This document shows, in pieces, positions 43,099 to 61,161 of a stretch of DNA of 64,000 nt. The notes under the pieces are model-generated. The model had not been told where the DNA came from, made no database searches, and was given only the letters and a program-made list of their open reading frames with translations. Source of the stretch: Planctomycetota bacterium. Lineage in GTDB: Bacteria; Planctomycetota; UBA11346. The DNA lies in NCBI GenBank assembly GCA_013696105.1, contig JACCZE010000336.1:7865-71864 (forward strand), written 5' to 3'. Position 1 is the first letter of the stretch, and the number at the start of each line of letters is the position of its first letter. Position numbers and translations under genes: made by a program.

Positions 43099-43328
43099 TC
43101 CCTGCGAGGTCGTCAGAACTGGAAGCGCTGAGCGGCCAGCCGCTTGGGTGAACCATCAGGTCACCGTTCGCAACGATAGCCGTTGTTGCATTATTCTGCG
43201 ATCATGTGTGCTGTCGCGCTCGCGTCTGCGAGCAGAGGTATCGCTGTGCCACCAGGAGTTCAGGGCATGACCACGAGTCGGATGCTGCGCGATCGACCGG
43301 TCGGGTCCGGAATGGCAGCCAGACGCCG

Positions 43329-45488
43329 ATGAGCGAACCGGACTCCGCTCCTCCCTCCACGCCGGCCGCACCGCCCGAGGCTGGCGATGCCCGAGCGCCT
43401 GGCGCCGGTGGCCAAGACGCAGGGGGCGGACGTTCGATCACCTTCAAGTCGGTGTTCTTCGGCCTGGCCGGCGTCGGATTCATCGCCTTGTATGCCAACT
43501 TCAACAGCGAGATCCTCAAGCTCAGCTCGATCATCGGCAACCAGCTGCCGATCGGGCCGTTCTTCATCATCCTCGTCCTGGCGACCCTATGGAATCCACT
43601 CGCTGGCAAGGTATCGAGCCGTCTGCGCTTGAGCACGCGCGAATTCGCCGTGGTGCTGGCGATGATGCTGATCTCCTGCTGGCTGCCGATGAGCGGGTTC
43701 TACATGCTCTTCCAGCGGGCGATCATCACCCCGTGGACGGTTGCCGCCGGCAAGCCCGACTGGGAGGTCCACAAGACGCTGTCGCACCTCCCAAAGGAGC
43801 TGTTCCCGCTCGAGCATGAACGCGGGTCCACCCAGGCCGACAAGGAAGCCTACGAGCGGGTCTACGAGAGCTTCGCGCAAGGCATCCCGCACGGGGACGA
43901 GAAGCTGGGGTTGACCGAAGCCCCGTATCGCGAATGGCTGCCCGCGATGATGCGGTGGGCTCCGTTGTTGCTGTTCGTGTCGATCGCGGTCATCTCGCTG
44001 ATCCTGCTCGTGCATCGACAGTGGTCGCATCACGAGCAGCTCGCCTATCCCCTGGCCATCGTCTCGACCGCGCTGATCGCGCGGACCGGGTCTCGGGCCA
44101 CCTCCGACATCTTCTATTCCCGGCTGTTCTGGTTCGGGTTCGCACCCGTGTTTGCGATCCACCTGTTCAATTATCTGCACGCGTGGTTTCCGCTGTACGT
44201 GCCGGAGATCAAGCTGACCACCGAGCTGATCGGGGAATTCAAGGAGATCTTCCCGTCGCTGAAGAACTCGATGACCCACGTCACCTCGATCAAGGTGAGC
44301 TTCCTGATCATCGGCATCGCCTACTTCATCGCATCGGACATCAGCCTCAGCCTGGGTATGGCCTCCTTGTTCGTCAGCGTGTTCACCGCCCAGTTCTACA
44401 TCATGAGCGGCGGCATGCCTGTGGGCTGGGGCGAGATGGCCAACATCCGCGCCGGCAGCTATGTGGCCTACGCTGCCCTGCTGGTCTACACGGGGCGCCA
44501 TTTCTACTGGAAGGTCTTCAACAAGGCGGTCCGGCCCATTTCCCAACGAGAGGATATGGAGGCCGTCTGGGCGGCGCGCATCTTCGTCCTGTCGTTCGCC
44601 TGCTTCGTGGGTTTCCTGATCACGGTGATGGATCTCGACTGGTTCATCGCCCTGATCTACGCCGGCAGCGTGATGCTCTTCATGCTGGTGTTCACCCGCA
44701 TCATCTGCGAAACCGGATTGCCGTTCCTGGCCGCGGGTGTCGACATCATCAATGTCATCACCTCGCTCCTGGGTGCGCCTGCGGTCGGTCCAGGCGCGCT
44801 CGTCGTCATCTATTACCTATCATGCATCATCAAGACTGACACCACCGAGGCGCTGATGCCCTACGTCGCGACCAGCTTGAAGACCGCCGACAATGTCGGA
44901 GTCAGCAGGCCGCGCCTGCTGACGGTCGCCTTCGCGGGCATGACCATCGCGTTCGCGCTCTGCTTCTTCTCATGGACCTACGGGCTCTACGCCAAGGGGT
45001 CGGGCAACAACATGTGGGTGGTGTCGCCGTCGATCTGGGCCCTGGATAACGCGACCACCAAGCTCGCGATCCTCAAGGATACCGAGCAATTGGCGGAATC
45101 AGCGAACACCCACGGTTTGGCCAAGCTTGGCCTGATCCCGCAGAACGTCGGCAACGGGCTGATCATCAAGTGGATGGGATTAGGCGCCTTCTTCGTGCTG
45201 GCATTCTCGCTGCTGCGCTTCCGATTCGCGTGGTGGCCGCTGCACCCTGTGGCATTCCTGGTCTGGGGCACCAGCGCGTCGCGCGTGACATGGTTCTCCT
45301 TCTTCCTCGGATGGTGCATCAAGGAGCTGATCGTGCGATTCGGCGGGGGGCGGAGCTACCAATCGCTCAAGCCGATCTTCCTCGGGCTGATCATGGGCGA
45401 GATCGTGGCGGTGGCGATGACCCTGGTCTGTGGAGCCTTCTACTACTGGTCGACCGGCCTGCTGCCGAAGACGATCGGGATCTGGTGA
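43329..45488 (+). CDS. Large polytopic membrane protein (about 719 aa, about 16 TM), OPT-oligopeptide-transporter-like; paralog of 52592-54547
   Basis: An Ala/Pro/Gly-rich N-terminal tail, then repeated TM helices. Segment-level similarity to the second membrane protein (LSTREFAVVLAMMLIS versus LSRAQLFVLFYLSGTII) and loosely to OPT-family N-termini. The start is at the Met at 43329. Confidence 0.6.
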   Translation: MSEPDSAPPSTPAAPPEAGDARAPGAGGQDAGGGRSITFKSVFFGLAGVGFIALYANFNSEILKLSSIIGNQLPIGPFFIILVLATLWNPLAGKVSSRLRLSTREFAVVLAMMLISCWLPMSGFYMLFQRAIITPWTVAAGKPDWEVHKTLSHLPKELFPLEHERGSTQADKEAYERVYESFAQGIPHGDEKLGLTEAPYREWLPAMMRWAPLLLFVSIAVISLILLVHRQWSHHEQLAYPLAIVSTALIARTGSRATSDIFYSRLFWFGFAPVFAIHLFNYLHAWFPLYVPEIKLTTELIGEFKEIFPSLKNSMTHVTSIKVSFLIIGIAYFIASDISLSLGMASLFVSVFTAQFYIMSGGMPVGWGEMANIRAGSYVAYAALLVYTGRHFYWKVFNKAVRPISQREDMEAVWAARIFVLSFACFVGFLITVMDLDWFIALIYAGSVMLFMLVFTRIICETGLPFLAAGVDIINVITSLLGAPAVGPGALVVIYYLSCIIKTDTTEALMPYVATSLKTADNVGVSRPRLLTVAFAGMTIAFALCFFSWTYGLYAKGSGNNMWVVSPSIWALDNATTKLAILKDTEQLAESANTHGLAKLGLIPQNVGNGLIIKWMGLGAFFVLAFSLLRFRFAWWPLHPVAFLVWGTSASRVTWFSFFLGWCIKELIVRFGGGRSYQSLKPIFLGLIMGEIVAVAMTLVCGAFYYWSTGLLPKTIGIW

Positions 45489-45489
45489 C

Positions 45490-46965
45490 ATGAGCGCTCC
45501 AGGCATCGACGTTCGCGCTCAGCACACGATCCCGTTGGCCAAGGCCACCACGCTGTGCCTGAAGGGTATCACCCATCGCCTGTTCCGTTCGCTGCTGACG
45601 CTGATGGTCATCGTGCTCGCCGTGGCGTTTTTCATGACTCTGCTGTGCGAAGCTGCCTTCACGCGCGCGATCGGAAGAGGCGTCATGTCCGAGGCTGCCG
45701 AGCAGCGCATCCCCGAGCGGCGCGCGAAGATTTGGTTCTCGCAGCCATCGCAGGTCCTGCTCGCGACTCGGTTGGCCACCGCCACGCAAGCGGATATCGA
45801 CGAATTCGCCGCGGTATCGGGAGTCGAGCACGCCCACGTGCAGCACCTCGTCGTTGAAAGCGATCGACAGGCGAGGCTCCTAGCTTTTTTCGCCACCATG
45901 GATGCCGGCAGTCGCGCGGTGCTGATCGGAAAGGTCAAAGGTCGCGAGGTGTTCACGCATCTTTCGGATCCAGCGGGATGGGAGGCTTTCACCCAGGGCG
46001 TGCGTCAGGTCCACGCTTATTCGCTGCCACTGCCGTTGCCCGAGATCAAGACGTTCATCGATGGCTATCCGGGCTATATTCGCGATCTCGATGCCTTCGC
46101 CTCCGCATGGAAGGCCGGTGTTTCTCGTTTCACCGCAGAGCTCGCTCCGATCGCCGGAACCACCGAAGAAGCCGGGTGGCGCGCGTGGCTGGTGTCGGCC
46201 GATGCCGGACAGCTCGCAACCGTCCAGGCGTTGCTGGCACGGCATGGCTTCCGGGATACCCTCGAGATTGTCGCGCGCGTGCGCCAAGGTCTGGCCGACG
46301 CCCAGGTGCGCGACCAGATCGCCGCTGCATTGGATTCGGACAAGGCCGTCGTCGCTTGGAAGAAGACCTTCCTGAACGATCCGTCTCCGGACCAGAAGAT
46401 GGGCTTCATCGCGGACAAGCGGGTGGAGCGGGTCCTGGAGGGGCGGTGGAGCCACGAGCGCCTGACTGCGGTCGCGGCGGGCATCGATCATGAGCACCAG
46501 GTCGCCAATCTCGAGAAGGTGGTGTCCCAGCGCATTCCCGACCAGCGCAGCGATGCGCTGATCAACGGTCGTCAGGCGTTCCTCATGGCCATCTCGTTCG
46601 TGGTATGCATGGTCGGCATCGCCAACGCCATGCTCATGGCGATCACCGAGCGCTTCCGTGAGATCGCGACCATGAAATGCCTCGGTGCCACCGACGGCTT
46701 CATCCTGCAGCAGTTCCTGATGGAGGCGGGCATCCAGGGGCTCGCTGGCGGGGCGGTCGGCATGGTCATCGGTGCAGTGTTGGCCGTGGCCAAGGGATCG
46801 GTCGTGTACGGCTCCTACCTCTATGGATATTTCCCCATCGTCGATGTCCTGATCGCAGCGGCGATCTGCATCGCGACCGGAGTCCTTCTATCCACCCTCG
46901 CCTCAATCTATCCGTCGTGGACCGCATCGCGGATGGCCCCGATGGATGCTATGAGGGTCGAGTGA
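45490..46965 (+). CDS. ABC transporter permease, FtsX/MacB-like (type VII ABC), 4 TM with a large periplasmic domain of about 330 aa
   Basis: TM1 (FRSLLTLMVIVLAVAF), a long extracytoplasmic domain, then the FtsX C-terminal signature ITERFREIATMKCLGATDGFILQQFLMEAG...YPSWTASRMAPMDAMRVE. Confidence 0.85.
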   Translation: MSAPGIDVRAQHTIPLAKATTLCLKGITHRLFRSLLTLMVIVLAVAFFMTLLCEAAFTRAIGRGVMSEAAEQRIPERRAKIWFSQPSQVLLATRLATATQADIDEFAAVSGVEHAHVQHLVVESDRQARLLAFFATMDAGSRAVLIGKVKGREVFTHLSDPAGWEAFTQGVRQVHAYSLPLPLPEIKTFIDGYPGYIRDLDAFASAWKAGVSRFTAELAPIAGTTEEAGWRAWLVSADAGQLATVQALLARHGFRDTLEIVARVRQGLADAQVRDQIAAALDSDKAVVAWKKTFLNDPSPDQKMGFIADKRVERVLEGRWSHERLTAVAAGIDHEHQVANLEKVVSQRIPDQRSDALINGRQAFLMAISFVVCMVGIANAMLMAITERFREIATMKCLGATDGFILQQFLMEAGIQGLAGGAVGMVIGAVLAVAKGSVVYGSYLYGYFPIVDVLIAAAICIATGVLLSTLASIYPSWTASRMAPMDAMRVE

Positions 46966-47729
46966 TGACGTTCGATCCGATCGCTTATGGTCGCGGCAAA
47001 TCGATCCTCGTGCGCGCGCATGGCGTGCAGAAGACCTATGTCCGCGGGGCCGAGGTCACCCAGGCGCTCAAGGGCATCGACCTCGAGATTTACCGAGGCG
47101 AATATATCTGCGTCATGGGTCCGTCAGGCTCCGGAAAATCGACATTCTTCAATATGGTCGGCGGTCTGGATTCACCCACGGCGGGCCGGGTATTCATCGA
47201 CGAGGTCGACATGGCCCAGCTCAACGCCCATGAGCTGGCGTTTCTGCGGTGCCGCAAGATCGGCTACATCTTCCAGTCCTACAATCTGAATTCGGTGATG
47301 ACCGCTCTCGAGAACGTCACGCTGCCGATGACCTTCGCGGGCGTCCATTCTGATGAGGCGCGGCGTCGAGGCATGGAGCTGCTCGAGCGCGTCGGGCTCG
47401 GCGACCGCTGGCTGCACCGGCCCAAGCAGATGTCGGGCGGTCAGCAGCAGCGCGTCGCCATCGCTCGCGCACTCGCCAATCGCCCGTCACTGCTGCTGTG
47501 CGACGAGCCGACGGCGAACCTCGACCTGGTCTCAGGCAAGGAGGTGCACCGTATCCTGCATGATCTCAATCGCGATGACGGCGTCACCATCATCTGTGCG
47601 ACGCACGACCACAACATGCTTGAGGTCAGCAACCGCATGATCTGGATCGCGAACGGCCAGATCGAGCGCGTCTCGTTGAGTTCGGATGTGCGCCTCGAAC
47701 GCGCCAGCCTGGGTGACGACCATGGGTGA
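46965..47729 (+). CDS. ABC transporter ATP-binding protein (MacB/LolD-type NBD)
   Basis: Walker A GPSGSGKST, Q-loop, ABC signature MSGGQQQRVAIARAL, Walker B LLLCDEPTANLD and H-loop CATHD. The start overlaps the upstream stop as TGATG. Confidence 0.9.
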   Translation: MTFDPIAYGRGKSILVRAHGVQKTYVRGAEVTQALKGIDLEIYRGEYICVMGPSGSGKSTFFNMVGGLDSPTAGRVFIDEVDMAQLNAHELAFLRCRKIGYIFQSYNLNSVMTALENVTLPMTFAGVHSDEARRRGMELLERVGLGDRWLHRPKQMSGGQQQRVAIARALANRPSLLLCDEPTANLDLVSGKEVHRILHDLNRDDGVTIICATHDHNMLEVSNRMIWIANGQIERVSLSSDVRLERASLGDDHG

Positions 47730-50700
47730 CCGCATCATGCGTCTGTTCATCGCGTGCTGCGCCGTGGTGTCGCTGACCGCGGCCGAGGCGCATCCCGCGT
47801 ACGATGCCGTGATGGCGGAGTTCTCGCGCCATGACCAGCGCCTGCCCGGTAGCGAAGCGTACCGGTCGAGCATTGCCGAGCTCGAGAAGGTCCTGCGCGC
47901 ATCCGGGCTCGAGCCCCATCGGCAGACGTTCGATACGCTGGTCCCGCGCACGCTCACATGCTCGCTGTCCATCGGCGGAGCGGACATCTCGCCGGTCCAT
48001 CCGCTCGCTCCCAATGGTGTTGCTCCCACCGGAACCTGGGGTGCTCCCGTCTCCGGACCCCTGGTGTACGTCGGCTCCGGATCTCCAGCCGATATGGATG
48101 GCAAGCCGATCGAGGGAAGCATCGCGGTGATGGAGTTCGGCGGACCGCACATGGACGAGGTCTTCGCCCAGGGCGCGCGCGCCGTGGTATTCGTCGGCAA
48201 CGACACCGCGACGCAGTGGTCGGTGGCCAAGCATTTCACCTCGTTGCCTGCGATCGTGCCGCGCGTCTATGTCGATCGCCCGGTCGCCGAGCGCGCGGGC
48301 ATGCTGAGCGCCGATGGCTCCGCAACCGCCACCCTCGACGTCTCGACCGCCTGGGAAGATGTCCAAGGCATCAATGTCTGGGCCAAGGTGCCATCCAAGA
48401 GGCCGCGCCCGCAGGTCGCAGAGGGGGAGACCGCCACCCCTCGGCACGCCTTCGTGCTGTCTGCGAATATGGGGACGTTCGGGTCCGTTCCGGACCTCAG
48501 CCCGCAACGGCGCTGGGCCGCGAACTGCGCCCTGCTCGCGGAAGTCGCGGCACGCCTCCAGCGCGAGCAGGCGGAGGCCGAGGTCTACATCGTCTTCTTC
48601 GGCAGCCATTACTCCGCCGAGGAAGGCGCGCGGTTCTTCTATTACGTGGTCGATAAGCATCGCAAGGGCGCGACCGATCGGGATACGTTGGCCTATCGCG
48701 ATCAATCCGTCTACCGCATGCAGCTCGAGCAGGTGGACCGATATACCGCACTTCTCGACCGCGAGGATTTCGCGGGCTCGACGACACGCGATGCGGTCAT
48801 GGTCCGTCTGCAGCTGAAAAACCACCTGGTGGGTATCGTCAACGACATCAACTACGATATGCGCGCATCGGCCATCGCCCAGAGCGCGCTCGAGAAGCGG
48901 ATTGCGGTGATGTCGTCGACGCGCACAAAGGATCTGGCGGAGGGCGTTCCTGAACTCGAGCATGCAATCGCTACGCAAGTCGCCGAGCAGAAGGAGCTGA
49001 AGACCACCAAGTCGGCGGTCAACGTCCTGCGCGGGGAACTGGCCGAAGGAGCATTCAGCGACAAGGCCGCGATCGCCAAGCATATCGACGTCATCCGCGA
49101 GCGGCTCAAACGCAAACGCGCGTGGCTGGAACGGATGATCGCCCACAACGCGACTTTCATCGAGCTGGCGGGGTCGCTCAAAGGCGAGACCATCATCGGC
49201 CACCTGTCGTTCGATTTTTCGTCCTCCGATCGTTCGTGGATGCTCTGTTGTTTCGGTGAGAATTGCTGGTCACGAGCCGAGGAGATATGGCCGGGCGCGC
49301 TCGGAAAGCATGTCACGGCCTACAAGAACGCGTTCGAGTCGATGCAACCGCGGACGGACGGCGTTGGCGGATTGTGGGTCCCGAGCAATGACGCGCCCTT
49401 CCGCTGGGACGCGTTGAGCACTCCGCACAGCCGCACCATCCCATCGGCCACTGCGGTCGCACTCGGGATCGCCGGATTCGAACTGATGACGCTCGCCGAT
49501 CCCCTCGACCACGACGAAATGCCGGTGCTCGGCGAGTGGAAGCTCGCGCCCCTGGCGCCGATGCTCGCGGATTGGGTGAGATCGCTGGCCGCGGTCGATG
49601 ATCTGCCGGTGAAGACCGGGATCCTGCCGACGGAGTACTTCGCTCCGCTCCAGTATTCGGCCTCGGGCGAGGACCTCACCGGTCTCGAGATCGTCGATCA
49701 GGCAAAGGGGGCTGAAGACGTCCAGGGCCTCGCGCGCAATGCGGTGGCGACGGTCGGCTACATGCCGCACAACATCGCCTCTTTCGAGCCGCCCTACAAG
49801 CTCGGCGCTATCAACATGGTGCTCTCGCGCGTGACTCCGGATGGCCGCGTCTTCGCGCCGAACGTGATCAGGCAACCGGACTACGACCCAACCGGCAACT
49901 ACGTCAACGCCTTCGGTTTCACCTCTGATGGCAGGATCGAGCGCACGTCTCCGAATGGACAGGGCGGGGGCAGCCGACTGAAGCTCTTCTATGCCTTCGG
50001 CGGATCGTTCTATACGCCATTCATCCCCAACGATTACATCTTCGTGAATCGCAGCGATTTCCTCGTGGCCAAGACCGACAGCGGTCCGAAGCGTCAGTTC
50101 TCGGCGTGGTTCCGCGGTTTGGAGGTCTTCTACCAGGATCAGCCCGTCAATTTCAAATACCTCGGCAATGGGATGAACATCCTCGGCATCGAGCAGGGGC
50201 TCGGACACGGCGTGGGGATCCCGATCACGTCGACGGACCTGATCGGCTTGAATGTCACCCGTCGATCCGGACACGACTACTCGGCGCTGAATCTGCAGCG
50301 GTTGAAGGCCCTGCGTGAACGCAATCTGGTCAACAAATCACTCGAGAAGCTGCAGGCTGACGCGCAAGAACAGGTCGATCTGGGCGACTCGTCGCGCAAG
50401 GATGGGGAAATCCGTTCAGCGATCGCGCACGATACCATCGCCACGATCATCGGTAACAGGGTGCATCAGCCGCTTCGCGACAACGCCTCTGACCTGGTGC
50501 AGGCGGTCATCATCCTGCTGCTCCTGTGCATCCCATTCTCGTTCGCATGCGAACGGCTGATGATCGGCGCAGCGTCCATCTATCGGCAGATCATCGGCTT
50601 TCTGAGCATCTTCCTCGCCACCTTCGGCGTGCTGTATGCCACCCATCCCGCGTTCTCGCTGGCCTCGGCCCCGATCGTCATCTTCCTGGCGTTCATCATC

Positions 50701-52599
50701 ATCCTGCTGAGCACCTTCGTGATCTTCGTAGTGATGAGCAAGTTCAAGCAGGAGCTCAAAGCGCTCCAGGGGTTATCCTCGAAAGTCCACGGCGGACAGG
50801 GGGAGAGCAGCACCGCGCTCGCGGCGGTGGTGATCGGCATCTCGGGCATGCGCAACCGGCCCTTGAAGACCTTTCTGACGTCGACCACGGTGGTGCTGCT
50901 GACCTTCACCATCCTGGTGTTCGCCTCGTTCACCTCGAATGTCGGCGTCGTCTCGACCTTCGTCGGAGCCGCTCGCGGTCCGGATCGCATCGAATTCCAT
51001 ACACCATCGTTCATGTTCATCCCCGATCGGCTGCTCGACAGCATCTCGGCGGTCTATGGTGATCGGTTCGACGTCTATCGTCGAGCAGGCTCGTTCAAGG
51101 TCTGGGGAAACGTCGGCACCCGTGATGAGATCGTGAATGTCGCCTTCAACCCCAAGGGCGACAAATACCAGCGCCTTGACAGCATGCTGATCGTCGATGA
51201 GCGCGAGGTCCCGAGGTTGGACCCCTTGTTCGCTCCGTTGGCGCAGCCATCGGACTCCGATCTCCCGCCGATCCTGCTGTCGCCCTTGGTGGCGAAGAAG
51301 GTGGGCCTCGCCATCGGGGATACCGTCACCGTCCGAGGTCAAAGCTATCGTCTCGCCGGCACGTTCGACGGCCCGACGCTCAAGCGCATCGAGAACGTCG
51401 ACGCATCGCGCATGCTTCCTCCGGATTTCGATCGTTCGAGTTCCAGTCTCGGCGTCAGCGCCGACAACCAGGACCGGATGCAGAACTTCTTCAAGAGCCT
51501 GGATTTCACCGGATTCATCTACAGTACGCCGGACATGGTCGGCGTCACCACCTTCGCAGGCATGGCGAAGCTGGGCCGGATCGACAATTACCTGGTAATG
51601 TACCCGAAAACCTCGGATGTCGATGTCGATACCGCTGCGCGCGAGATCGCCTCGTACGTCGATGGCCCGGTGTGCGCCTCCGTCGCAGGCAAGGGAACGA
51701 ACCGCTACATCTTCTCACGCGCGTTCGCCGGCTCAGGATTCATCGAGGTGCTGGTGCCGCTGCTGCTGGGCGGGCTGATCATCTTCAGCTCGCTCCTCGG
51801 GTCGATCGTGGATCGTCAGAAGGAGATCTACACCTTCAGCGCGCTCGGGCTCGCTCCACCGGACGTCGGTGCCCTGTTCTTCGCCGAGTCGGCGGTGTAC
51901 TCGGTCCTCGGCGGCATGGGCGGGTACCTCATCAGCCAGGTGGTCGCAAAGGGCCTGATGGTGCTCTCGGCCCATGGGCTCGCCGACGTACCGGACCTGA
52001 ACTTCTCCTCGCTCTCATCGATCGCGACCATCCTCATCGTGATGCTGACCATTATGCTATCGACCATCTATCCGGCGATGATGGCCGGCCGGTCGGCGAA
52101 CCCCGGCGTCGCGCGCAAATGGAAGATGCCAAAGCCCGAGGGCGACCGCATCGCTTTCACATTCCCGTTCACCGTCTCTGCCGAGAGCATCGGCGGCATC
52201 CTCGCCTTCATTCGCGAGCATTTCGAGAACCACGGAGACGCGACGCTCGGGGCATTCTCCGCGCGCGACATTCGCATCTTCCGTGACGAAGGCTCCGCCG
52301 GGCGACCTCCGTCGACGGGAATCTCCGCCGACGTATCGCTCGCTCCGTTCGACCTCGGAGTGCTGCAGCGCTTCGTCCTGAGCACCCGCCCATCGGATAT
52401 CAAGGGCATCGATGAGGTGGTGGTCGAGCTGACGCGCATCAACGGCGCGCCTGGCACGTGGCTGCGCGGCAATCGCGAATTCATCAACGACCTGCGCAAT
52501 CAGTTCTTGTTCTGGCGCTCGCTGCCGCTGGCGACCACCGAGCATTACCAGGAGATCGCTGCGCGCTCATTCGGCACGGCGGAGGTGTCCCTTGGCTAG
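47722..52599 (+). CDS. Giant (about 1625 aa) secreted/membrane protein: signal peptide, M28-peptidase-like domain with a PA-domain insert (canonical metal-ligand motifs not evident), 3 extra TM helices, then an FtsX/MacB-type permease module (4 TM plus a 270-aa periplasmic domain)
   Basis: Signal peptide MRLFIACCAVVSLTAAEA. A PA-like IAVMEFGGPHMDEVFAQGARAVVFVGND. An M28-like layout VLSANMGTF...AANCALLAEVAARL...VYIVFFGSHYSAEEG with EE retained but the HxD/DD positions replaced. FtsX TM1 RNRPLKTFLTSTTVVLLTFTILVFA. The FtsX C-terminal module RQKEIYTFSALGLAPPDVGALFFAESAVYSVLGG...YPAMMAGRSANPG. The start is at 47722 (or 47737). Confidence 0.75.
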   Translation: MGDRIMRLFIACCAVVSLTAAEAHPAYDAVMAEFSRHDQRLPGSEAYRSSIAELEKVLRASGLEPHRQTFDTLVPRTLTCSLSIGGADISPVHPLAPNGVAPTGTWGAPVSGPLVYVGSGSPADMDGKPIEGSIAVMEFGGPHMDEVFAQGARAVVFVGNDTATQWSVAKHFTSLPAIVPRVYVDRPVAERAGMLSADGSATATLDVSTAWEDVQGINVWAKVPSKRPRPQVAEGETATPRHAFVLSANMGTFGSVPDLSPQRRWAANCALLAEVAARLQREQAEAEVYIVFFGSHYSAEEGARFFYYVVDKHRKGATDRDTLAYRDQSVYRMQLEQVDRYTALLDREDFAGSTTRDAVMVRLQLKNHLVGIVNDINYDMRASAIAQSALEKRIAVMSSTRTKDLAEGVPELEHAIATQVAEQKELKTTKSAVNVLRGELAEGAFSDKAAIAKHIDVIRERLKRKRAWLERMIAHNATFIELAGSLKGETIIGHLSFDFSSSDRSWMLCCFGENCWSRAEEIWPGALGKHVTAYKNAFESMQPRTDGVGGLWVPSNDAPFRWDALSTPHSRTIPSATAVALGIAGFELMTLADPLDHDEMPVLGEWKLAPLAPMLADWVRSLAAVDDLPVKTGILPTEYFAPLQYSASGEDLTGLEIVDQAKGAEDVQGLARNAVATVGYMPHNIASFEPPYKLGAINMVLSRVTPDGRVFAPNVIRQPDYDPTGNYVNAFGFTSDGRIERTSPNGQGGGSRLKLFYAFGGSFYTPFIPNDYIFVNRSDFLVAKTDSGPKRQFSAWFRGLEVFYQDQPVNFKYLGNGMNILGIEQGLGHGVGIPITSTDLIGLNVTRRSGHDYSALNLQRLKALRERNLVNKSLEKLQADAQEQVDLGDSSRKDGEIRSAIAHDTIATIIGNRVHQPLRDNASDLVQAVIILLLLCIPFSFACERLMIGAASIYRQIIGFLSIFLATFGVLYATHPAFSLASAPIVIFLAFIIILLSTFVIFVVMSKFKQELKALQGLSSKVHGGQGESSTALAAVVIGISGMRNRPLKTFLTSTTVVLLTFTILVFASFTSNVGVVSTFVGAARGPDRIEFHTPSFMFIPDRLLDSISAVYGDRFDVYRRAGSFKVWGNVGTRDEIVNVAFNPKGDKYQRLDSMLIVDEREVPRLDPLFAPLAQPSDSDLPPILLSPLVAKKVGLAIGDTVTVRGQSYRLAGTFDGPTLKRIENVDASRMLPPDFDRSSSSLGVSADNQDRMQNFFKSLDFTGFIYSTPDMVGVTTFAGMAKLGRIDNYLVMYPKTSDVDVDTAAREIASYVDGPVCASVAGKGTNRYIFSRAFAGSGFIEVLVPLLLGGLIIFSSLLGSIVDRQKEIYTFSALGLAPPDVGALFFAESAVYSVLGGMGGYLISQVVAKGLMVLSAHGLADVPDLNFSSLSSIATILIVMLTIMLSTIYPAMMAGRSANPGVARKWKMPKPEGDRIAFTFPFTVSAESIGGILAFIREHFENHGDATLGAFSARDIRIFRDEGSAGRPPSTGISADVSLAPFDLGVLQRFVLSTRPSDIKGIDEVVVELTRINGAPGTWLRGNREFINDLRNQFLFWRSLPLATTEHYQEIAARSFGTAEVSLG

Positions 52600-54547
52600 G
52601 ATCGACAAGGAACTGGAGCAATACCGCCAGCTGATGTCAGTGCCATCGGTGTTCGAGAACGGATTCTCGCTCTCAACCTTCTTCGGCGTGATGTTCATCG
52701 CCCTGGTGATGGTGCCTGGATCGTTGTACATGGAGCTGCTCGCCGGCCAGGGTGTCGGATCGTCGGCCCAGTGGGTGACGGTGATCCTGTTCATGGAGAT
52801 CGCGAAGCGCGCGAACGCCAAGCTGTCACGCGCCCAGCTCTTCGTGCTGTTCTACCTGTCCGGCACCATCATCGGGCAGGGTGGCGGCCTCTTGTGGACG
52901 CAGTTCCTGGTGCGCAGCGACGCGGCCCTGGGAGCCGGCATGAGCGGTGCCTTCCCGATCTGGGTGGCTCCGAGCGACCCGGCTGCCTTTGAGAACCGCA
53001 CGTTCCTCCAGGCTGCGTGGCTGCCCGCGATCGGTCTCATCTTCTTCAAGATGTTTTTCGGTCGGCTCGACAACATGGTGTTGGGATACGGCCTCTTCCG
53101 GCTGACCAGCGACGTCGAGAAGCTGCCGTTCCCGCTCGCGCCTATTGGCGCGCAGGGGATGCTCGCGCTCGCGGACGATCTCGAAGGCAAGGCTCAGGTC
53201 CAGGGATCGTGGCGCTGGCGGGTGTTCTCGATCGGTGGCGCCCTGGGCATGATCTTCGGTGTGCTGTTCTACGGCTTGCCGACGATCAGTGGTGCGGTGT
53301 TCGGCACATCGTTCACCGTTTTGCCGATCCCTTTCGCGGACTGGTCGGACTACACCAAGACCTACCTGCCCGCGGTCGCGACGGGCCTGTCGTTCGATCT
53401 CGGCAACATCATCCTCGGTATGGTGATGCCCTATTTCGCCATGGTGGGGTCCTTCATCGGCCTGATCACCACCTTCATCATGAATCCGATCCTGTACCAC
53501 ACCGGGGTGCTGACCTCGTGGACCCCGGGCGACAGCACCGTCGAGACGATGTTCAAGAACTCGATCGACCTCTATTTCAGCTTCGGCATCGGGCTGTCGC
53601 TGGCGATCGCGGTCATCGGCTTCATGGCGGTGTTCAAGCTCAAGAAGAAGCAGCGCGAGGACCATGCCGCGGCCCTCGGCAGCGATATCCCGCCTGGCCG
53701 AGGCGACATCCCCAACCGCGTCGTGCTCTGGACCTACGTGCTCTCGACCATCATCTACATCCTGGTCTGCGGATACCTGGTGGATTGGCACACCGGGGTG
53801 ATGGTGGTCCTGGTGTTCTTCGGATTCCTGTACACGCCGATCATCTCCTACGTCACCGCCCGCCTCGAAGGCATCGCCGGGCAGGTGGTCGAGATCCCCT
53901 ACATCCGCGAACTGTCCTTCATCCTGTCAGGCTATCAGGGGGTGGGGATCTGGTTCATCCCCACGCCGATGGCCAATTATGGCGCCCAGACCGTGTTCTA
54001 CCGGCAGGCGGAACTCACCGGCACCCGATTCACGTCCTTGTGGAAGTCCGAGGTCTTCCTCTTCCCGGTGATGATCGTCGCGACCATCGCCTTCGCGAGC
54101 TTCATCTGGGGACTGGGCGAGATCCCCTCGTCGGTCTATCCCTTCACCCAGCAGATGTGGGAGCTCAACGCCAAGAATGCGGTGCTGGTGATGTCGTCCA
54201 CCACCGGCGAGTACTCGCAGTTCCAGGAGGCGCTCTCCGGAACCAAGGTCGGTATCGGCTTCGGCGTCGGCATGGGCGTCTTCGGTTTCCTCGCCGTCTT
54301 CAATGCGCCGACGACCCTGCTCTACGGTCTGATCCGCGGCATCGGCCAGACCACCCCGCACATGGTGATCCCGCAGTTCCTGGGTGCGCTGCTCGGGCGT
54401 TATTACTTCGAGAAGCGCCTGGGCCTGAAATGGCGCGAATACGTGCCCGTGCTCAGCGCGGGATTCTTCTGCGGTGCGGGCCTCATCACCATGTTCTGCA
54501 TCGGAGTGGTGTTCCTGATGAAATCCAGCAACCACCTGCCCTACTGA
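52592..54547 (+). CDS. Large polytopic membrane protein (651 aa, about 16 TM), OPT-like; paralog of 43329-45488
   Basis: A TTG start with a perfect GGAGGTG RBS 4 nt upstream, overlapping the upstream stop. Hydrophobic throughout, with a GMVMPYFAMVGSFIGLITTFIMNP region. Confidence 0.6.
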   Translation: MARIDKELEQYRQLMSVPSVFENGFSLSTFFGVMFIALVMVPGSLYMELLAGQGVGSSAQWVTVILFMEIAKRANAKLSRAQLFVLFYLSGTIIGQGGGLLWTQFLVRSDAALGAGMSGAFPIWVAPSDPAAFENRTFLQAAWLPAIGLIFFKMFFGRLDNMVLGYGLFRLTSDVEKLPFPLAPIGAQGMLALADDLEGKAQVQGSWRWRVFSIGGALGMIFGVLFYGLPTISGAVFGTSFTVLPIPFADWSDYTKTYLPAVATGLSFDLGNIILGMVMPYFAMVGSFIGLITTFIMNPILYHTGVLTSWTPGDSTVETMFKNSIDLYFSFGIGLSLAIAVIGFMAVFKLKKKQREDHAAALGSDIPPGRGDIPNRVVLWTYVLSTIIYILVCGYLVDWHTGVMVVLVFFGFLYTPIISYVTARLEGIAGQVVEIPYIRELSFILSGYQGVGIWFIPTPMANYGAQTVFYRQAELTGTRFTSLWKSEVFLFPVMIVATIAFASFIWGLGEIPSSVYPFTQQMWELNAKNAVLVMSSTTGEYSQFQEALSGTKVGIGFGVGMGVFGFLAVFNAPTTLLYGLIRGIGQTTPHMVIPQFLGALLGRYYFEKRLGLKWREYVPVLSAGFFCGAGLITMFCIGVVFLMKSSNHLPY

Positions 54548-54601
54548 TGCCGATCACCGCCCGACATCCAGTTGAGACGTGCGCCGATGGGAGGGGATCC
54601 G

Positions 54602-55366
54602 ATGGCTGACTGCCCGATTCCATCCGGCCCCGTGGCTTCGGCCCGCGAGCTGATCGTCCGCGTCAGCGGTGTCGACAAGGTGTATCGCACCGGCCACGAG
54701 ACCGTGTACGCGCTCAAAGGCATCGACCTCGACATCTATCGTGGCGAATACCTGTCGATCATGGGCCCGTCGGGTTCAGGCAAATCCACGCTGTTCAACG
54801 TCATCGGCGCGCTCGACAAGCCCACCCGGGGCGAAGTGGCCGTCGGCTCGGTGTCCCTGCCCAAGCTGAGTTCGGCCGAGCTGTCGTACTTCCGTTGCCG
54901 TCACATCGGCTACGTCTTCCAGAACTACAACCTCATCCAGTCGCTGACCGCGCTCGAGAACGTCACGCTGCCGTTGACCTTCATCGGCGCCGACGACGCC
55001 GAAGCCAAGCGCCGAGCGATGGAGGTCTTGGATTTTGTCGGCCTCGCCGATCGCCTCACCCACAATCCCGGACAGCTCTCAGGCGGTCAGCAGCAGCGCG
55101 TGGCGATCGCCCGCGCATTGGCCAATCGTCCCACCATCCTGCTCGCGGACGAGCCCACGGCGAACCTCGACCTCAAGACCGGCGCGATGGTGATCGACAT
55201 CTTCAAGAAATTGTCGTCCGAGCACGGGGTGACGATCATCACCGCGACCCATGACCACAAGATGCTCGCGGTCTCCGATCGCATCGTCGACATCGCAGCG
55301 GGTCAGGTGGCGCGCATCCGCAACGTGCGCGACCTGAACATCACGGTCGGCAAGATCCATGCCTGA
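54602..55366 (+). CDS. ABC transporter ATP-binding protein (second MacB/LolD-type NBD; paralog of 46965-47729)
   Basis: Walker A GPSGSGKST, LSGGQQQRVAIARAL, ILLADEPTANLD and TATHD. The ATG at 54602 is preceded by GGGAGGGG. The track ORF starts at 54572. Confidence 0.9.
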   Translation: MADCPIPSGPVASARELIVRVSGVDKVYRTGHETVYALKGIDLDIYRGEYLSIMGPSGSGKSTLFNVIGALDKPTRGEVAVGSVSLPKLSSAELSYFRCRHIGYVFQNYNLIQSLTALENVTLPLTFIGADDAEAKRRAMEVLDFVGLADRLTHNPGQLSGGQQQRVAIARALANRPTILLADEPTANLDLKTGAMVIDIFKKLSSEHGVTIITATHDHKMLAVSDRIVDIAAGQVARIRNVRDLNITVGKIHA

Positions 55367-56288
55367 GGCCGACGCGCCGCCGGCGCGGAGGGATGATCGG
55401 CTGCCGCTGCACCTCCAGCGCCTGCGGCACCTGTCGTGGGAGGGCTTCTCCTTCGTGCTTCCTCCGGGCTGGGAAATCACCGCGTACAGCTTGGACGCCA
55501 AGAACGGCCAATTCCAGTTTTTCGAGCGCGGCACATTCCGCGCGCAGTTGGTCTGGCGGAAGGTGCCCAAGGCCCCGGATCTGCCGCGTATCCTCAACGA
55601 GATCCATCGGCGTCAGCTCGAGAAGGATGCGCCCGGTTCCTCGAAGTCGTTCAGCACGCTCGAATTCGCCCAGATCGGTCGGTTCCTGGTCGGCCACGAC
55701 CGGCCTGGCCTACCCTGCCAGGCCTCGCTCTTCCAGCCCGATCGCGGCCTGCTCATCCAGTGGGTCTTCCCCAGCTACGATCCAGGAGATTTCATCACGA
55801 GTTGGATGCCGCTGCTCGACTCGTTCGCGCCGAACGATGCCGCGGAGATGCGCTGGGAGCTGTTCGGCCTGTCGCTGCGGCTGCCGCGAAGCATGACCTT
55901 CGAGGAGATCACTCCTGATCCTGCGAATGTGGCGTTGTCGTTCGAGACCAGGAAGCACGCGAAGCTGGTCGCTCGCCGCATGGGCCTTCCGACCATCGTG
56001 CTCGCCGGTACGTCTCTCGCGCGGGTGCATGCGCGCATCCTCGAGCGCGCCGGATCGCGCATCCTCTCGTGCGAGGATCTCTCCATGGATGGCCACCGTG
56101 CGGTGCGCACGCGCTTCGACCGGCGCGGCATGAAAGGCATGGAGAAGTTGGTCGGCGGCTGGTGGCCCGGAGACGCCTGGATCTGGCACGACGAGATCGA
56201 GGGTCGCATCTATGCCATCGAGCAGTTCGGACCCAGGAAGCAGATTCCGATCGAGTTGTCAGCGATCATCCGCCGGGACGGTCCGTGA
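55359..56288 (+). CDS. Hypothetical protein (309 aa); possibly a degenerate HprK-kinase-C-terminal-like domain without a P-loop
   Basis: No Walker A. The segment LAGTSLARVHARILERAGSRILSCEDL loosely parallels the HprK [27 protein letters not shown] with the P-loop lost. The start overlaps the ATPase stop. Confidence 0.45.
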   Translation: MPEADAPPARRDDRLPLHLQRLRHLSWEGFSFVLPPGWEITAYSLDAKNGQFQFFERGTFRAQLVWRKVPKAPDLPRILNEIHRRQLEKDAPGSSKSFSTLEFAQIGRFLVGHDRPGLPCQASLFQPDRGLLIQWVFPSYDPGDFITSWMPLLDSFAPNDAAEMRWELFGLSLRLPRSMTFEEITPDPANVALSFETRKHAKLVARRMGLPTIVLAGTSLARVHARILERAGSRILSCEDLSMDGHRAVRTRFDRRGMKGMEKLVGGWWPGDAWIWHDEIEGRIYAIEQFGPRKQIPIELSAIIRRDGP

Positions 56289-56674
56289 TGGTCGCTAAGC
56301 CAAAGGGTCCGGGGACACTGGCAGAACAGATGTCGGCAGTCCCGGTGCGCAACGAGAAGGTGCGTGTCGTCGAGCAGTCCGGCGGGGCGCACCTGACCGT
56401 ACCCTTGACCTACCACGCCATGCTGCGGCCACTGGCGTCGGCGATGAAGCTGCGCACCGAGAAGACGTTCCAGCTGGATGTGCTCGCCTACTCGGTGTAC
56501 CGCCGGATCGACGGCGTCGCGACCGTCGAGACCCTCGCTGATCGGCTGAAGGATGAATTCCAGCTGTCATTCCATGAGGCGCGCGTGCTGGTGATGCGCT
56601 ACCTGCAGCTCTTGATGGTTCGTGGACTGGTGGTCCTGGCAAAGCCTCTTCCGGCTCCGACCACCGGGGGCTGA
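56288..56674 (+). CDS. PqqD-family-like protein (RiPP recognition element / peptide chaperone fold), 128 aa
   Basis: VPVRNEKVRVVEQSGGAHLTVPL...FQLDVLAYSVYRRIDGVATVETLADRLKDEFQLSFHEARVLVMRYLQLLMVRGLVVL follows the PqqD/RRE pattern P.....V.......L.....L.LN..A..IW.L.DG..TV.EI...L...F.V....A..DV..FL..L...GL. The start overlaps the upstream stop as TGATG. Confidence 0.5.
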   Translation: MVAKPKGPGTLAEQMSAVPVRNEKVRVVEQSGGAHLTVPLTYHAMLRPLASAMKLRTEKTFQLDVLAYSVYRRIDGVATVETLADRLKDEFQLSFHEARVLVMRYLQLLMVRGLVVLAKPLPAPTTGG

Positions 56675-56791
56675 TCCACTCGGTCGATCCTCTCTGTCGA
56701 AGGTTCGGGTGATCCGAGTGCTGATTCTGGCTGCTTGGCACGACTGGCGCTCACATGGTGAAACACCAGCGCTACGCTCGTGAGGGGCCAT

Positions 56792-58192
56792 ATGTTCCGG
56801 ATTCATCGTGCAGTCTGCAGTCTCGCCATCCTGTGCATGCTTGCCGGATGCGGCGGCGGTGGCGGGGGAAGCACTCAGCCGGTTGGCCAATCCACCACTC
56901 CCGTGACGATCGTAGTTCCCACACGTGCGGATCTGGTCCTGGCTGAGCCCATGCAGATGTCCACGAACTCCGGAGTCACCATCCAGCTCATGGTCCGGAA
57001 CGTCGGCGGCGTCGATGCTGCCGATGTGGGTTTGAAAGCGACCCGAGCCGATGGCACGGTGGTGCATCAGGAGACCATAGCAAGCATGCCGGCAGGATCC
57101 GAGCGGATGGTGATGTTCTCGGACGGCGCGCAGGGGGTCAATCAGACCTTCACCATCGTCGTCGATCCAGACAACCGCATCGTCGAGGCTTTCGAGGACA
57201 ACAACACGATCACCGTGACCTCGACATTCATCGATACGCCTTCGACGCTGAATGGCGATCTGGCTCTCAACGGCGTCCATACCCATGGGGCGGTCTACTT
57301 CGCCGATCCGTCGTTCCATCTCTACATCGAGAACAACACCGACCAGAGTCTCAGCGGCATCACCGTCACCGTCCGTGACGAGGCCTCCGGCCAGGATCTC
57401 TACGGGATGCCGTACACCGAATCCACGGTGATCGCTGCGCATACCGTCGGACCTCGCAGCGGGAACCAGGGAGCGGAGGAGCAGGGGATCTTCCGCGCGC
57501 CGTTCTCCGATCCCGCTTACGCCTCCCAGCCCAAGCCGACCCCTGGCCGCCACGTCTACCACGTCATCCTCGACCCCAATGGGCGCTTCGCGGAGACCAA
57601 TGAGGCCAACAACGACTGGCGCCTCGTCGTCAACGTCCCAAGCGGCTATGGCTATTGGCCGCTATCCAACGGCACGGATACGATCGGAGACACCTACAAG
57701 ACCGATGTCATGTTCCAGGATCCGCACATCCATCCCGCGGATCGCCAGCGCTATGTGACCTTCCATGGTTGGCTCAAGAACAACCACCCGGGCAAGCAAC
57801 TCGTCGGACACGACCTGATCAACGGATCCGACCCGGACTACCCCGGTGTGGCCAAGCGCATCGTTCCCTTCGTGGTCAAGCGCGAGGGCGTGCCGATCAC
57901 CTTGATCGCGCCGGGTTTCGATGCCAACCGCCAGATCAATTACGGGGTCACCGCCGCCGGCAAAGCGTACTTCATCCTACCCGATGCCGGATTGGCGCCG
58001 CAGGCAAACCGCGAGTACCTGTTCATCACCCAGGAGCCGCAATCGACGGGCGAGATCAACTACACCATCGACCTCGATCCGGACAACGTCATCGATGAGC
58101 AGTACGAAGGCACGAACATGGGCCAGGGCCCGATCGACAACAACCACGCCGACTCGGTGGTGGTGATGGATCCGCTCGGCACGCCCGGCTGA
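56792..58192 (+). CDS. Lipoprotein with three CARDB-like Ig-fold repeats
   Basis: Lipobox MFRIHRAVCSLAILCMLAGC followed by a Gly-rich linker. The pattern ADLVL......N.GG..A....L......G......T......G......F..G......T..VDP.N.V.E..E.NN repeats. The ATG at 56792 has a GAGGGG RBS. The track ORF starts at 56780. Confidence 0.7.
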   Translation: MFRIHRAVCSLAILCMLAGCGGGGGGSTQPVGQSTTPVTIVVPTRADLVLAEPMQMSTNSGVTIQLMVRNVGGVDAADVGLKATRADGTVVHQETIASMPAGSERMVMFSDGAQGVNQTFTIVVDPDNRIVEAFEDNNTITVTSTFIDTPSTLNGDLALNGVHTHGAVYFADPSFHLYIENNTDQSLSGITVTVRDEASGQDLYGMPYTESTVIAAHTVGPRSGNQGAEEQGIFRAPFSDPAYASQPKPTPGRHVYHVILDPNGRFAETNEANNDWRLVVNVPSGYGYWPLSNGTDTIGDTYKTDVMFQDPHIHPADRQRYVTFHGWLKNNHPGKQLVGHDLINGSDPDYPGVAKRIVPFVVKREGVPITLIAPGFDANRQINYGVTAAGKAYFILPDAGLAPQANREYLFITQEPQSTGEINYTIDLDPDNVIDEQYEGTNMGQGPIDNNHADSVVVMDPLGTPG

Positions 58193-58358
58193 GACCGGCC
58201 TGGGCGGAGACGACTCCGCCGACTGATCCTCGTTGGCCCGCTCTCGCAGCGGAGCGTCGTTCCAGCCGTTCCACGAACGTTGTTGAGAACTCGTCGAGTC
58301 CCACGCCTTGCGCCTCAGGTCGTCGGTCTACACTGCCAGGCCCGAACGAGCTTGCCGA

Positions 58359-58838
58359 GTGCGCTGCCCCTATTGCAACCAAGATGATGACCGCGTGCTG
58401 GACTCCCGGGCGACCGACGATGGCACCGCGATCCGCCGCCGGCGGGTGTGCAACCCCTGTGGCAAGCGCTACACCACCTACGAGCGCGTCGAGGGCGAAG
58501 AATCGTTGCGCGTGGTCAAGAAGGACGGCCGCATCCAGAGCTTCGACCGCCGTAAGGTGCTTGCCGGAATGATCACCGCGTGCGAGAAGCGCCCGGTATC
58601 CTCCGAGGATCTCGAGGCGTCTGCGAACCGCGTCTATCACCAGCTGCTGAGCCTGGGCGAGCGCGAAGTGGGATCGGCGGTCATCGGCCAGCACGTGATG
58701 GACGAGCTGCACAAGCTGGACCAGGTCGCCTATGTGCGCTTCGCGTCGGTGTACCGCCAGTTCAAGGATCTCGACGAGTTCATGAGCGAACTGCGCCGCG
58801 TCATTGGCGGCGGTGGCCCGCAGCAGAAGCCCGAATGA
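58359..58838 (+). CDS. nrdR: Transcriptional repressor NrdR
   Basis: A Zn-ribbon VRCPYCNQDDDRVLDSR....RRRRVCNPCGKRYTTYE followed by an ATP-cone (VVKKDGRIQSFDRRKV). A GTG start at 58359 gives the canonical M-R-C-P-(F/Y)-C N-terminus. The track ORF starts at 58308. Confidence 0.9.
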   Translation: MRCPYCNQDDDRVLDSRATDDGTAIRRRRVCNPCGKRYTTYERVEGEESLRVVKKDGRIQSFDRRKVLAGMITACEKRPVSSEDLEASANRVYHQLLSLGEREVGSAVIGQHVMDELHKLDQVAYVRFASVYRQFKDLDEFMSELRRVIGGGGPQQKPE

Positions 58839-59013
58839 TGCAATGCGTCCATCCTCGGCGAGGATCCGCACCGAAGCGTGACGCGGCCACCGGGAGGGGA
58901 GCGGGAAAATACTGGCGGCGCATGCGCTGCGATCTAAGAGGGGATCCGCGCGAGCCCGCGGCCTCGACCGGGCGCGCCGCTGCGATCGGGTGTACGCTTC
59001 CGGGATCGACCAC

Positions 59014-60435: not shown

Positions 60436-60675
60436 CCGACTCGGCCACCGAGGCCGACATCCGCATTCGCATCGGCGCGGCATCGAGCGATCGCAAAAGC
60501 ATTCGTTCCGCACGACGTGCTGTCCTCTGCGCGGCGATCCACGCCTGCACGACGGACTCGACCTCGACCGTGGCGATCCGGACGTCGAAAAGTTTTTCTT
60601 GAAACATCCGTGATGATTTCAGGCTGCGCCCCCACGCGGACGTTTCAGATAGATCGACCGCGCCGAAAGGACCCC

Positions 60676-61161
60676 ATGGCACATGATGCATCGGTAGCTC
60701 CGAAGGAGCGCGTCAACATCGTCTATCAGGCATCGACCGGCGATGCGCAGCAGGAGAAGGAGCTGCCTCTGAAGCTGCTGATGTTGGGGGATTACACCCA
60801 ACGCGCCGATGACCAGCCGCTCGAGGAACGCAAGGCTGTCGGCGTGACGAAGGACAACTTCGACGATGTCCTCGCCAGCCAATCGATCCGGGTCGCCCTG
60901 CAGGTGCCCAACCGGCTTGCCGAGGACGCGGGTGAGCTCGCGGTGCATCTGTCGATCGCATCGATGAAGGACTTCGAACCCGAGGCGCTCGCACGCCAGG
61001 TTCCGGAACTCGCCAAGCTGCTGGCGCTGCGCGAAGCACTCTCGGCATTGAAGGGTCCGCTGGGCAACGTCCCGGCTTTCCGCAAGAAGATCCAGGATCT
61101 GATCGCGGATACGTCCACGCGTTCCGCCCTGCTGAAGGAAGTCGGCGCCGCCGACGTCTGA
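60676..61161 (+). CDS. tssB: Type VI secretion system contractile sheath small subunit TssB (VipA)
   Basis: KERVNIVYQASTGDAQQEKELPLKLLMLGDY...NFDDVL...SMKDFEPEALARQVPEL matches the TssB pattern. A GAAAGGA RBS precedes the ATG at 60676. The first 53 codons of the track ORF were rejected. Confidence 0.85.
   Translation: MAHDASVAPKERVNIVYQASTGDAQQEKELPLKLLMLGDYTQRADDQPLEERKAVGVTKDNFDDVLASQSIRVALQVPNRLAEDAGELAVHLSIASMKDFEPEALARQVPELAKLLALREALSALKGPLGNVPAFRKKIQDLIADTSTRSALLKEVGAADV

Follow-up and report, generated by a model that had tools for sequence, protein, structure and literature searches.

A PqqD-like protein and a tandem PsbP/Mog1-like partner linked to an ABC-transporter cluster of Planctomycetota and Kiritimatiellota

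Described systems closest to the gene pair

PqqD and the B1 proteins of lasso-peptide pathways such as TbiB1 are the closest described relatives of a PqqD-like protein of 128 amino acids (aa) that is encoded, together with a 309-aa protein, by two adjacent genes of a Planctomycetota bacterium. The genes are located in a stretch of 64,000 nucleotides (nt) from contig JACCZE010000336.1 (assembly GCA_013696105.1, positions 7,865 to 71,864 of the forward strand), which is called the window in the following; the family of the 309-aa protein was given the working name U309. Like PqqD and TbiB1, the 128-aa protein belongs to the family PF05402, is small and cytoplasmic, has the same predicted fold and is found either split from or fused to its partner. 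Unlike them, it lacks a precursor gene here as well as partners of the radical-SAM, cyclase or protease kind, it carries an N-terminal 'IPVRN' strand of its own, its fixed partner is a predicted tandem PsbP-like protein and its fixed setting is a cluster of ATP-binding cassette (ABC) transporter genes. Matches to the RiPP recognition element (RRE; RiPP, ribosomally synthesised and post-translationally modified peptide) outside known RiPP contexts exist and are unexplained (RRE-Finder, PMC7470986).

The partner recalls a second group of described proteins, those of the Mog1/PsbP fold (PsbP, Mog1, DcrB, Eag, TplEi and PA3488). Known members of this group bind proteins or peptides rather than act as enzymes, and PsbP, DcrB and TplEi work outside the cytoplasm. 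Each half of U309 is predicted to form the same alpha/beta sandwich and, like TplEi and PA3488, U309 has two such domains. Unlike all of these proteins, with which it shares 9-16% sequence identity, U309 has no membership at the level of hidden Markov models (HMMs) and, unlike PsbP, DcrB and TplEi, it is cytoplasmic. The pair also differs from the Eag/DUF1795 chaperones of type VI secretion systems (T6SS), since its neighbours are ABC-transporter genes and not a T6SS effector with N-terminal transmembrane (TM) helices.

The cluster itself resembles the type VII ABC systems MacAB-TolC, LolCDE, FtsEX, YtrBCDEF and BceAB in its FtsX-domain permeases, its MacB-like topology and its LolD/MacB-like ATPases. 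Unlike these systems it has no conserved membrane-fusion protein or outer-membrane channel, and it combines two ABC engines with OPT-like and DUF6785 membrane proteins. FtsEX acts through the catalytically dead EnvC, and a giant permease of the cluster with a fused M28-like domain, whose zinc ligands are probably lost, recalls this FtsEX-EnvC arrangement. To our knowledge, a PqqD-like or PsbP-like cytoplasmic accessory pair is not part of any of the five type VII systems. Finally, the HprK-related kinase/PqqD systems (Haft HPr-rel-A and related cassettes) are similar in that a PqqD-family protein is joined by a larger partner outside the synthesis of pyrroloquinoline quinone (PQQ), but U309 has neither a kinase fold nor a kinase motif and the models specific to these systems were not matched. 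Literature searches found no papers on DUF6785, on PqqD with FtsX or on FtsX with M28 in Planctomycetes, and searches that combined PqqD, Planctomycetes and ABC transporter or PqqD, PsbP and DUF1795 retrieved unrelated papers only. What appears to be new here is a PqqD/RRE-type domain with a new partner family that is recruited to an ABC transporter, for which no description was found in the literature searched.

The PqqD-like protein and its partner U309

The two open reading frames (ORFs) had been noticed in a sequence-only reading of the window and both are present where it had placed them (Table 1). The stop codon TGA of the U309 gene and the start codon ATG of the PqqD-like gene have 1 base in common, and the first 8 nt of the U309 gene are also the last 8 nt of the ATPase gene before it. 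Both deduced proteins are 100% identical to deposits from a Planctomycetes metagenome-assembled genome (MAG), 'hypothetical protein H0V44_13340' and 'PqqD family protein'.

Table 1 Genes of the ABC-transporter cluster and the gene pair in the window.
Feature	Coordinates	Strand	Length, evidence and remarks
DUF6785+DUF6784 polytopic membrane protein	43206..45488	+	760 aa; Pfam E 8e-74 and 2e-25
FtsXs, four-TM MacB-type permease	45430..46965	+	511 aa; Pfam FtsX E 2.5e-16; TM map
ABC1, first LolD/MacB-type ABC ATPase	46677..47729 (maximal ORF)	+	Pfam ABC_tran E 3.5e-33
Giant duplicated FtsX/MacB-type permease	47686..52599	+	1637 aa; Pfam FtsX at residues 1356-1468
OPT-like polytopic membrane protein	52592..54547	+	651 aa; Pfam OPT 30.9 bits vs gathering score 25.8
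ABC2, LolD/MacB-type ABC ATPase	54572..55366	+	Pfam ABC_tran E 7.5e-35
U309	55359..56288	+	309 aa; predicted tandem PsbP/Mog1/DcrB/Eag/TplEi-type alpha/beta-sandwich domains; cytoplasmic
PqqD-like protein	56288..56674	+	128 aa; PqqD/RRE family, distinct subfamily
CARDB-domain lipoprotein (lipobox LAGC)	56792..58192	+	Pfam CARDB E 7.5e-21

The PqqD-like protein was matched by the Pfam model PF05402 over residues 55-115 with 26.8 bits (gathering score 23.4, E 6.6e-6), and since this curated threshold is passed the PqqD identity is real, as the sequence-only reading had assumed. A profile made from 15 members of the subfamily retrieved the solved PqqD 3g2b (E 7e-4) and the lasso-peptide PqqD chaperone 9x90_B (E 2e-3) from the PDB sequences. 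The RRE fold, a beta-sheet with a three-helix winged helix, was assessed on the fused relative P0017 and not on the window protein; its PqqD part superimposed on the lasso RRE protein TbiB1 (5v1u, 5v1v), which was solved with its leader peptide, with TM-scores of 0.78-0.79 and a Foldseek probability of 1.00. The 128-aa protein is thus a member of the PqqD/RRE family as judged by sequence, and by fold through a relative. Hallmarks of its subfamily are the N-terminal 'IPVRN' strand and a helix that starts with 'LSFxEAR', both of which are conserved in the subfamily alignment. The specific PqqD models of NCBIfam all scored below their cut-offs, as seen for PQQ_PqqD (TIGR03859, 20 bits vs 46), lasso_PqqD_Bac (NF033536, 13.5 bits vs 80) and ScmD (19 vs 100), and the test for the GeoRSP subfamily was failed as well.

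For U309, no Pfam or NCBIfam match was obtained at E<=0.1. A scan of 50 diverse members of the family against Pfam at E<=1 revealed no recurring family; PsbP, DcrB and DUF1795 were matched by none of them, an HprK family did not appear and, as in the Pfam and NCBIfam scans of the pair, there was no match to an enzyme family. The family profile found nothing significant among the PDB sequences, even at E<=10. The family is sizeable: when its profile was run against 1.84 billion cluster representatives, 641 of them matched at E<=1e-3 and, at the stricter E<=1e-10, 291, and all source names that could be retrieved were 'hypothetical protein'. An AlphaFold2 model based on 12 homologues (mean pLDDT 86.8, pTM 0.82) predicts two consecutive beta-sandwich-plus-helix domains. 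In Foldseek searches of the PDB each of the two resembled PsbP, Mog1, DcrB, PA94, EagT6 and SciW (E 8e-5 to 1e-2, probability ~1.0, target TM-score 0.45-0.62), and the whole protein resembled the two-domain T6SS immunity proteins TplEi and PA3488 over 300-390 aligned columns. The halves are related to each other (hhalign E 2.6e-5), a sign of internal duplication. Neither a signal peptide nor a TM segment was found in U309. By its model, U309 is a tandem PsbP/Mog1/TplEi-like protein of a family that is absent from Pfam and NCBIfam, and both U309 and the PqqD-like protein are cytoplasmic and have binding-type folds without a catalytic signature.

These results bear on a further proposal of the sequence-only reading, which had seen an HprK-like segment with a replaced Walker A motif in the 309-aa protein and had considered an inactive kinase-like scaffold. 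The models HprK, HprK_rel_A/B and PqqD_rel_X, including those of Haft for the HprK-related systems, were not matched, Pfam, NCBIfam and the PDB sequences gave no HprK match (no HprK structure at E<=10), and the model shows two copies of an alpha/beta sandwich without a P-loop. The HprK-like reading of U309 is ruled out by these HMM, PDB-sequence and fold results, no tool result speaks in favour of it, and a degenerate HprK/P-like kinase that is paired with PqqD as a pseudo-kinase scaffold is extremely unlikely.

Two other candidate roles were rejected. A function in T6SS immunity or as an Eag chaperone had come up from the fold matches and from nearby tssB and tssC genes, but the ABC cluster persists in distant loci (L010, L012, L094 and L096) without T6SS genes in the examined flanks. 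In the window, tssB (VipA) and tssC (VipB) are located at 60517-62716, 4 kb downstream, and their adjacency to the cluster is seen only in the closest relatives. Anti-phage defence was discarded because neither U309 nor the PqqD-like protein had a PADLOC match.

Linkage of the pair and its transporter cluster

Related loci came from exact look-ups, from a scan of genomes and from a scan of metagenomes that used the neighbouring FtsX permease as bait, and their six-frame ORFs were searched with HMMs of the U309 and PqqD families. Thirty-eight non-redundant loci contained either family. In 34 of them the PqqD gene came directly after the U309 gene and in the same orientation, and one further locus had a U309-PqqD fusion, showing that the two genes belong together, as the sequence-only reading had supposed. 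The PqqD gene occurred without U309 in three loci, two of which are cut by the sequence end, and U309 alone was found in none of the 38. The genes overlapped by 1-17 nt in five of the six relatives with called genes, and a gap of 14 nt was present in the sixth (L003); the overlaps suggest that the two genes are translationally coupled. On a short contig with a Polyangiales label (L007) the pair is all that is present, and in L042 the second ATPase gene is followed by a divergent PqqD-containing ORF (20445-21467) that runs in the opposite direction.

Fusions were also seen at the protein level. Eight longer U309 members (423-489 aa) were scanned with Pfam and six of them had a C-terminal PqqD domain at E<=0.005, the strongest being P0017, P0086, P0105 and P0108 (E 1e-4 to 2e-7). 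The 'IPVRN' motif with which the free-standing PqqD proteins begin recurs in these fusions, where it comes after a disordered linker of ~35-45 residues. The model of one fusion had a pLDDT of 81.5 and a pTM of 0.77.

The alignment of the FtsX permease retrieved 80 related loci. The same gene set surrounds the pair in MAGs of Planctomycetota and Kiritimatiellota and in unclassified metagenomic contigs, down to a U309 identity of ~20%. The pair keeps its internal order and shifts as a block among three positions of the cluster: after the second ATPase gene (the window, L014, L022, L034 and L084), before the FtsX permease gene (L043-L046, L049, L054, L062, L066 and others) or before the DUF6785 gene (L047, L068, L083 and L096). 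In L068 (1-11493) the gene order is circularly permuted and reads OPT, ABC, U309, PqqD, DUF6785, FtsX, ABC and giant permease. Independent loci that were found via U309 or PqqD and have enough flanking sequence all show the cluster, with the exception of two fusion loci (L098 and L099). The genomic partner of the pair is the ABC-transporter cluster and not a RiPP pathway.

The positions before the FtsX or DUF6785 genes often place the pair at the 5' end of the cluster, as might be expected of a transcriptional regulator whose PqqD-like winged helix binds DNA while U309 senses a ligand, both controlling the operon. RRE domains are indeed structurally homologous to winged-helix DNA-binding regulators, which are also retrieved by RRE searches (PMC7470986). 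Nevertheless we regard a regulator as very unlikely: the sequence matches are to PqqD/RRE families and not to a helix-turn-helix regulator family, the gene is apparently translationally coupled inside the operon, directly after the ATPase gene, and the single promoter-like site in 43000-58400 is on the minus strand near 43200 (operator-like repeats were not searched for).

A RiPP or peptide-chaperone setting, to which the sequence-only reading had pointed, would need a precursor peptide, and a short ORF in the gap downstream of the PqqD-like gene (56675-56779, 105 nt) or elsewhere in the operon had been proposed. The gap has no free-standing ORF of >=20 aa; those present run in other frames across parts of the PqqD or CARDB genes. 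In comparison with the relative L003 (68% identical) only a short motif, the ribosome-binding site and the start of the CARDB gene are conserved there. The motif, GTCGAAGGTTC, is located between the PqqD and CARDB genes at ~56699-56713 in the window and at ~3455-3470 in L003, and the start of the CARDB gene was set to 56792 because GAGGGGCCAnATG is conserved. An all-against-all comparison of small ORFs from the first loci yielded only shadow frames of conserved genes, and after masking of genes no intergenic small-ORF family of all loci was common to more than two of them, those few being from near-identical contigs. A conserved small ORF was thus found neither within the cluster nor next to it in 80+ related loci, and a cis-encoded precursor, in the gap or elsewhere, is ruled out by these comparisons.

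Enzymes of peptide modification were not found either. Neither a peptide-modifying enzyme nor a membrane-fusion protein or an outer-membrane channel is conserved among the related loci, no extra gene family near the pair is common to more than four of them, and the cluster has no cyclase or transglutaminase-like gene. Some 30 further genes of the window that were scanned code for housekeeping functions according to Pfam and gave no match to pqqB/C/E-type, radical-SAM, cyclase (including lasso cyclase) or YcaO families, which confirms that the PqqD-like protein is encoded outside a PQQ operon. A gene of the glucose/sorbosone dehydrogenase (GSDH) family, whose members are usually PQQ-dependent, is present at 14725-15855, and genes for PQQ biosynthesis were not found among the window genes scanned. 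Of the sequence-only reading, the PqqD assignment has held, whereas the 309-aa protein has an unrelated fold and the conserved small ORF is missing.

A RiPP pathway in which the PqqD-like protein presents a precursor to an enzyme, the 309-aa protein serves as scaffold and the ABC proteins export the product would therefore require that precursor and enzyme are encoded elsewhere or are too short or divergent. Membership in the PqqD/RRE family is in line with such a pathway, ABC exporters are common in RiPP clusters (PMC7470986), and the ABC ATPases score, below the cut-offs, against models of bacteriocin and darobactin exporters. Besides, the fused homologue P0017 in L098 is encoded 400 nt downstream of a radical-SAM/SPASM gene. 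This sole radical-SAM neighbour is, however, an anaerobic sulfatase-maturing enzyme (TIGR03942, 417 bits vs 349) and was seen once, so that the adjacency was treated as chance and the enzyme not as a RiPP maturase. A second radical-SAM gene, in L096, is part of a queuosine operon on the other strand, and a radical-SAM link was rejected. With no modifying enzyme and no small-ORF family beside the pair, and with the specific RiPP PqqD models all far below their cut-offs, we consider a RiPP pathway quite unlikely.

The other parts of the cluster were inspected as well. Relatives of ABC1 at the same cluster position are 246-259 aa long and, because they have ~246 aa, the true start of ABC1 is probably near 46990 and not at the start of the maximal ORF. 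Matches of the ABC ATPases to LolD/DevA/MacB-type models of NCBIfam were all below the cut-offs. Wherever the sequence of an examined related locus extends far enough, ABC2 comes after the OPT-like gene.

According to the hydropathy map, the giant FtsX protein has an outside domain of ~900 aa, which is M28/PA-like, a cytoplasmic loop at residues 1016-1061 and a C-terminal cytoplasmic domain of ~170 aa at residues 1470-1637; among the PDB sequences it matched YtrF, MacB, LolF/LolC and the aminopeptidase 2ek8, and its Pfam FtsX match had an E of 6.5e-10. Residues 1310-1516 matched the PADLOC model PDLC01991 'CARF_m8--CARF_LolE_TM' far more strongly (E 2e-42), and the name of this model, by itself, suggests that relatives of the giant permease were once catalogued with a minor CARF-like domain. 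Residues ~111-308 align to 2ek8, with the zinc-ligand motifs replaced ('SHHDS' by 'SANMGT' and 'GANDDASG' by 'QRRWAANC'). The M28-like domain of the window protein is probably a pseudo-peptidase that has lost its zinc ligands, as judged from this alignment. Relatives of the giant protein in L012, L094 and L096 still match Pfam Peptidase_M28.

The OPT-like protein, with ~12 hydrophobic segments and a match that spans profile positions 134-619 of 623, is a distant member of the OPT oligopeptide-transporter superfamily. Its N-terminal cytoplasmic tail of ~25 residues is strongly conserved over 28 homologues (DkELEefRxlMevPstFeeGF) and reads MARIDKELEQYRQLMSVPSVFENGF in the window protein. The DUF6785 gene is frequent but not universal: it is present in 1-4 tandem copies (four in L040 2-8774, two in L060 4674-8798) and missing from some clusters. 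BLASTP gave nothing significant for a paralogy of DUF6785 and OPT-like proteins, and the only common stretch was 'E-x-L-x-(F/Y)-P-L-A' (hhalign probability 3%, E 0.014).

The CARDB gene is outside the cluster core and was seen only in the closest relatives; elsewhere, the pair is followed by a gene with Big_2, DUF4838 or DUF5060 or by a PhyH gene on the opposite strand. Further downstream in the window, in the region 58308-60435, an NrdR gene (58308-58838) precedes a gene for a 481-aa protein in which Pfam recognises only an N-terminal ATP-cone, and the same two genes also follow the cluster in L001, L003 and the P0014 contig.

Proposed role of the pair and its meaning

On balance, it is probable that the pair is a dedicated cytoplasmic, non-enzymatic binding accessory of the ABC transporter. 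U309 and the PqqD-like protein would then form one binding module, which is made of two coupled polypeptides here and of one fused polypeptide in some bacteria. The machine that it may serve would comprise two MacB/FtsX-type ABC engines and at least one OPT-like or DUF6785 membrane protein. Engine 1 would consist of the small FtsX permease and ABC1, engine 2 of the giant duplicated FtsX protein and ABC2. The PqqD half may clamp a short, extended peptide segment by strand addition to its beta-sheet, as RRE domains do, and the tandem PsbP/Mog1/Eag-like half may provide a platform for the binding of a protein or of a hydrophobic segment. The module would dock on the cytoplasmic face of the transporter, most likely at ABC2 or at a conserved cytoplasmic tail, for instance the N-terminal one of the OPT-like protein. 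There it would gate the activity of the ATPase or else present a peptide or protein as cargo. We infer here that module and transporter form a complex, which segment is bound and in which direction transport runs.

Of the cluster, only an ABC ATPase gene is present upstream of the fusion P0035 (L099 2021-4110), which it overlaps by 4 nt. Since the ATPase alone stays attached to the fusion in L099, the tightest link of the module is suggested to be that to the ATPase, and ABC2 is a candidate docking partner for the same reason. A docking peptide may also be provided by the OPT-like protein, the N-terminal tail of which is strikingly conserved over the 28 homologues.

Several observations weigh against an accessory that is dedicated to the transporter. 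The locus L073 has a PqqD gene without U309 at that position, the clusters L063 and L070 show no pair within the 1-1.7 kb examined on either side, and the fusion P0017 (L098 8563-11365) is solitary in the 18 kb examined, which contain neither an ABC gene nor one for FtsX or OPT. Furthermore, most of the 38 loci were found with the FtsX permease as bait and, therefore, the sample favours clustered cases. Because of the exceptions L063, L070, L098 and L073, the linkage of the pair to the cluster is strong but not absolute.

A more specific form of the binding role is that the module is the cytoplasmic substrate receptor of an unrecognised secretion or uptake machine, so far mainly of Planctomycetota and Kiritimatiellota. 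The RRE-type domain, a kind otherwise known from RiPP biosynthesis, would in this case use a leader-like signal to pick out a peptide or protein segment that stays unmodified and would pass it on to a two-engine MacB-type ABC/OPT-like complex, a 'leader-guided transport without modification'. We consider this receptor role a rather unlikely, speculative extension.

An assembly or holding chaperone would also be a cytoplasmic binding protein. In this case the pair would bind to hydrophobic or extended stretches in the giant FtsX, the OPT-like or the DUF6785 proteins before or while these are inserted into the membrane, much as Eag/DUF1795 chaperones shield TM helices of T6SS effectors, and would not be part of the working machine. 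The U309 domains resemble EagT6 and SciW, which were solved with TM segments of effectors (6xrf, 6xrr; Foldseek probability 0.96-1.00), the polytopic proteins of the cluster are unusually large and the pair is cytoplasmic. However, the likeness to Eag is at the level of the fold only (TM-score 0.45-0.50, 12-16% identity), PsbP and Mog1 give matches that are equally good or better, and DUF1795 was absent from the Pfam matches of the 50 U309 members. Nothing separates a chaperone from a stable subunit, and taken together we hold the chaperone to be an unlikely alternative to the dedicated transporter accessory.

For the U309 family, which is absent from Pfam and NCBIfam, the predicted fold is a first functional handle. 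PqqD/RRE domains are used as a class-independent flag in the mining of peptide natural products, and a sizeable family, with 641 representatives of the obligate partner, that is tied to a transporter and has no precursor or maturase calls for caution when an orphan PqqD is taken as a RiPP marker. Further, it is a hint that leader-type peptide recognition may have been reused for transport or for its control. The cluster defines a conserved, wholly unannotated envelope system of 7-8 genes in Planctomycetota and Kiritimatiellota, groups with a poorly understood envelope biology.

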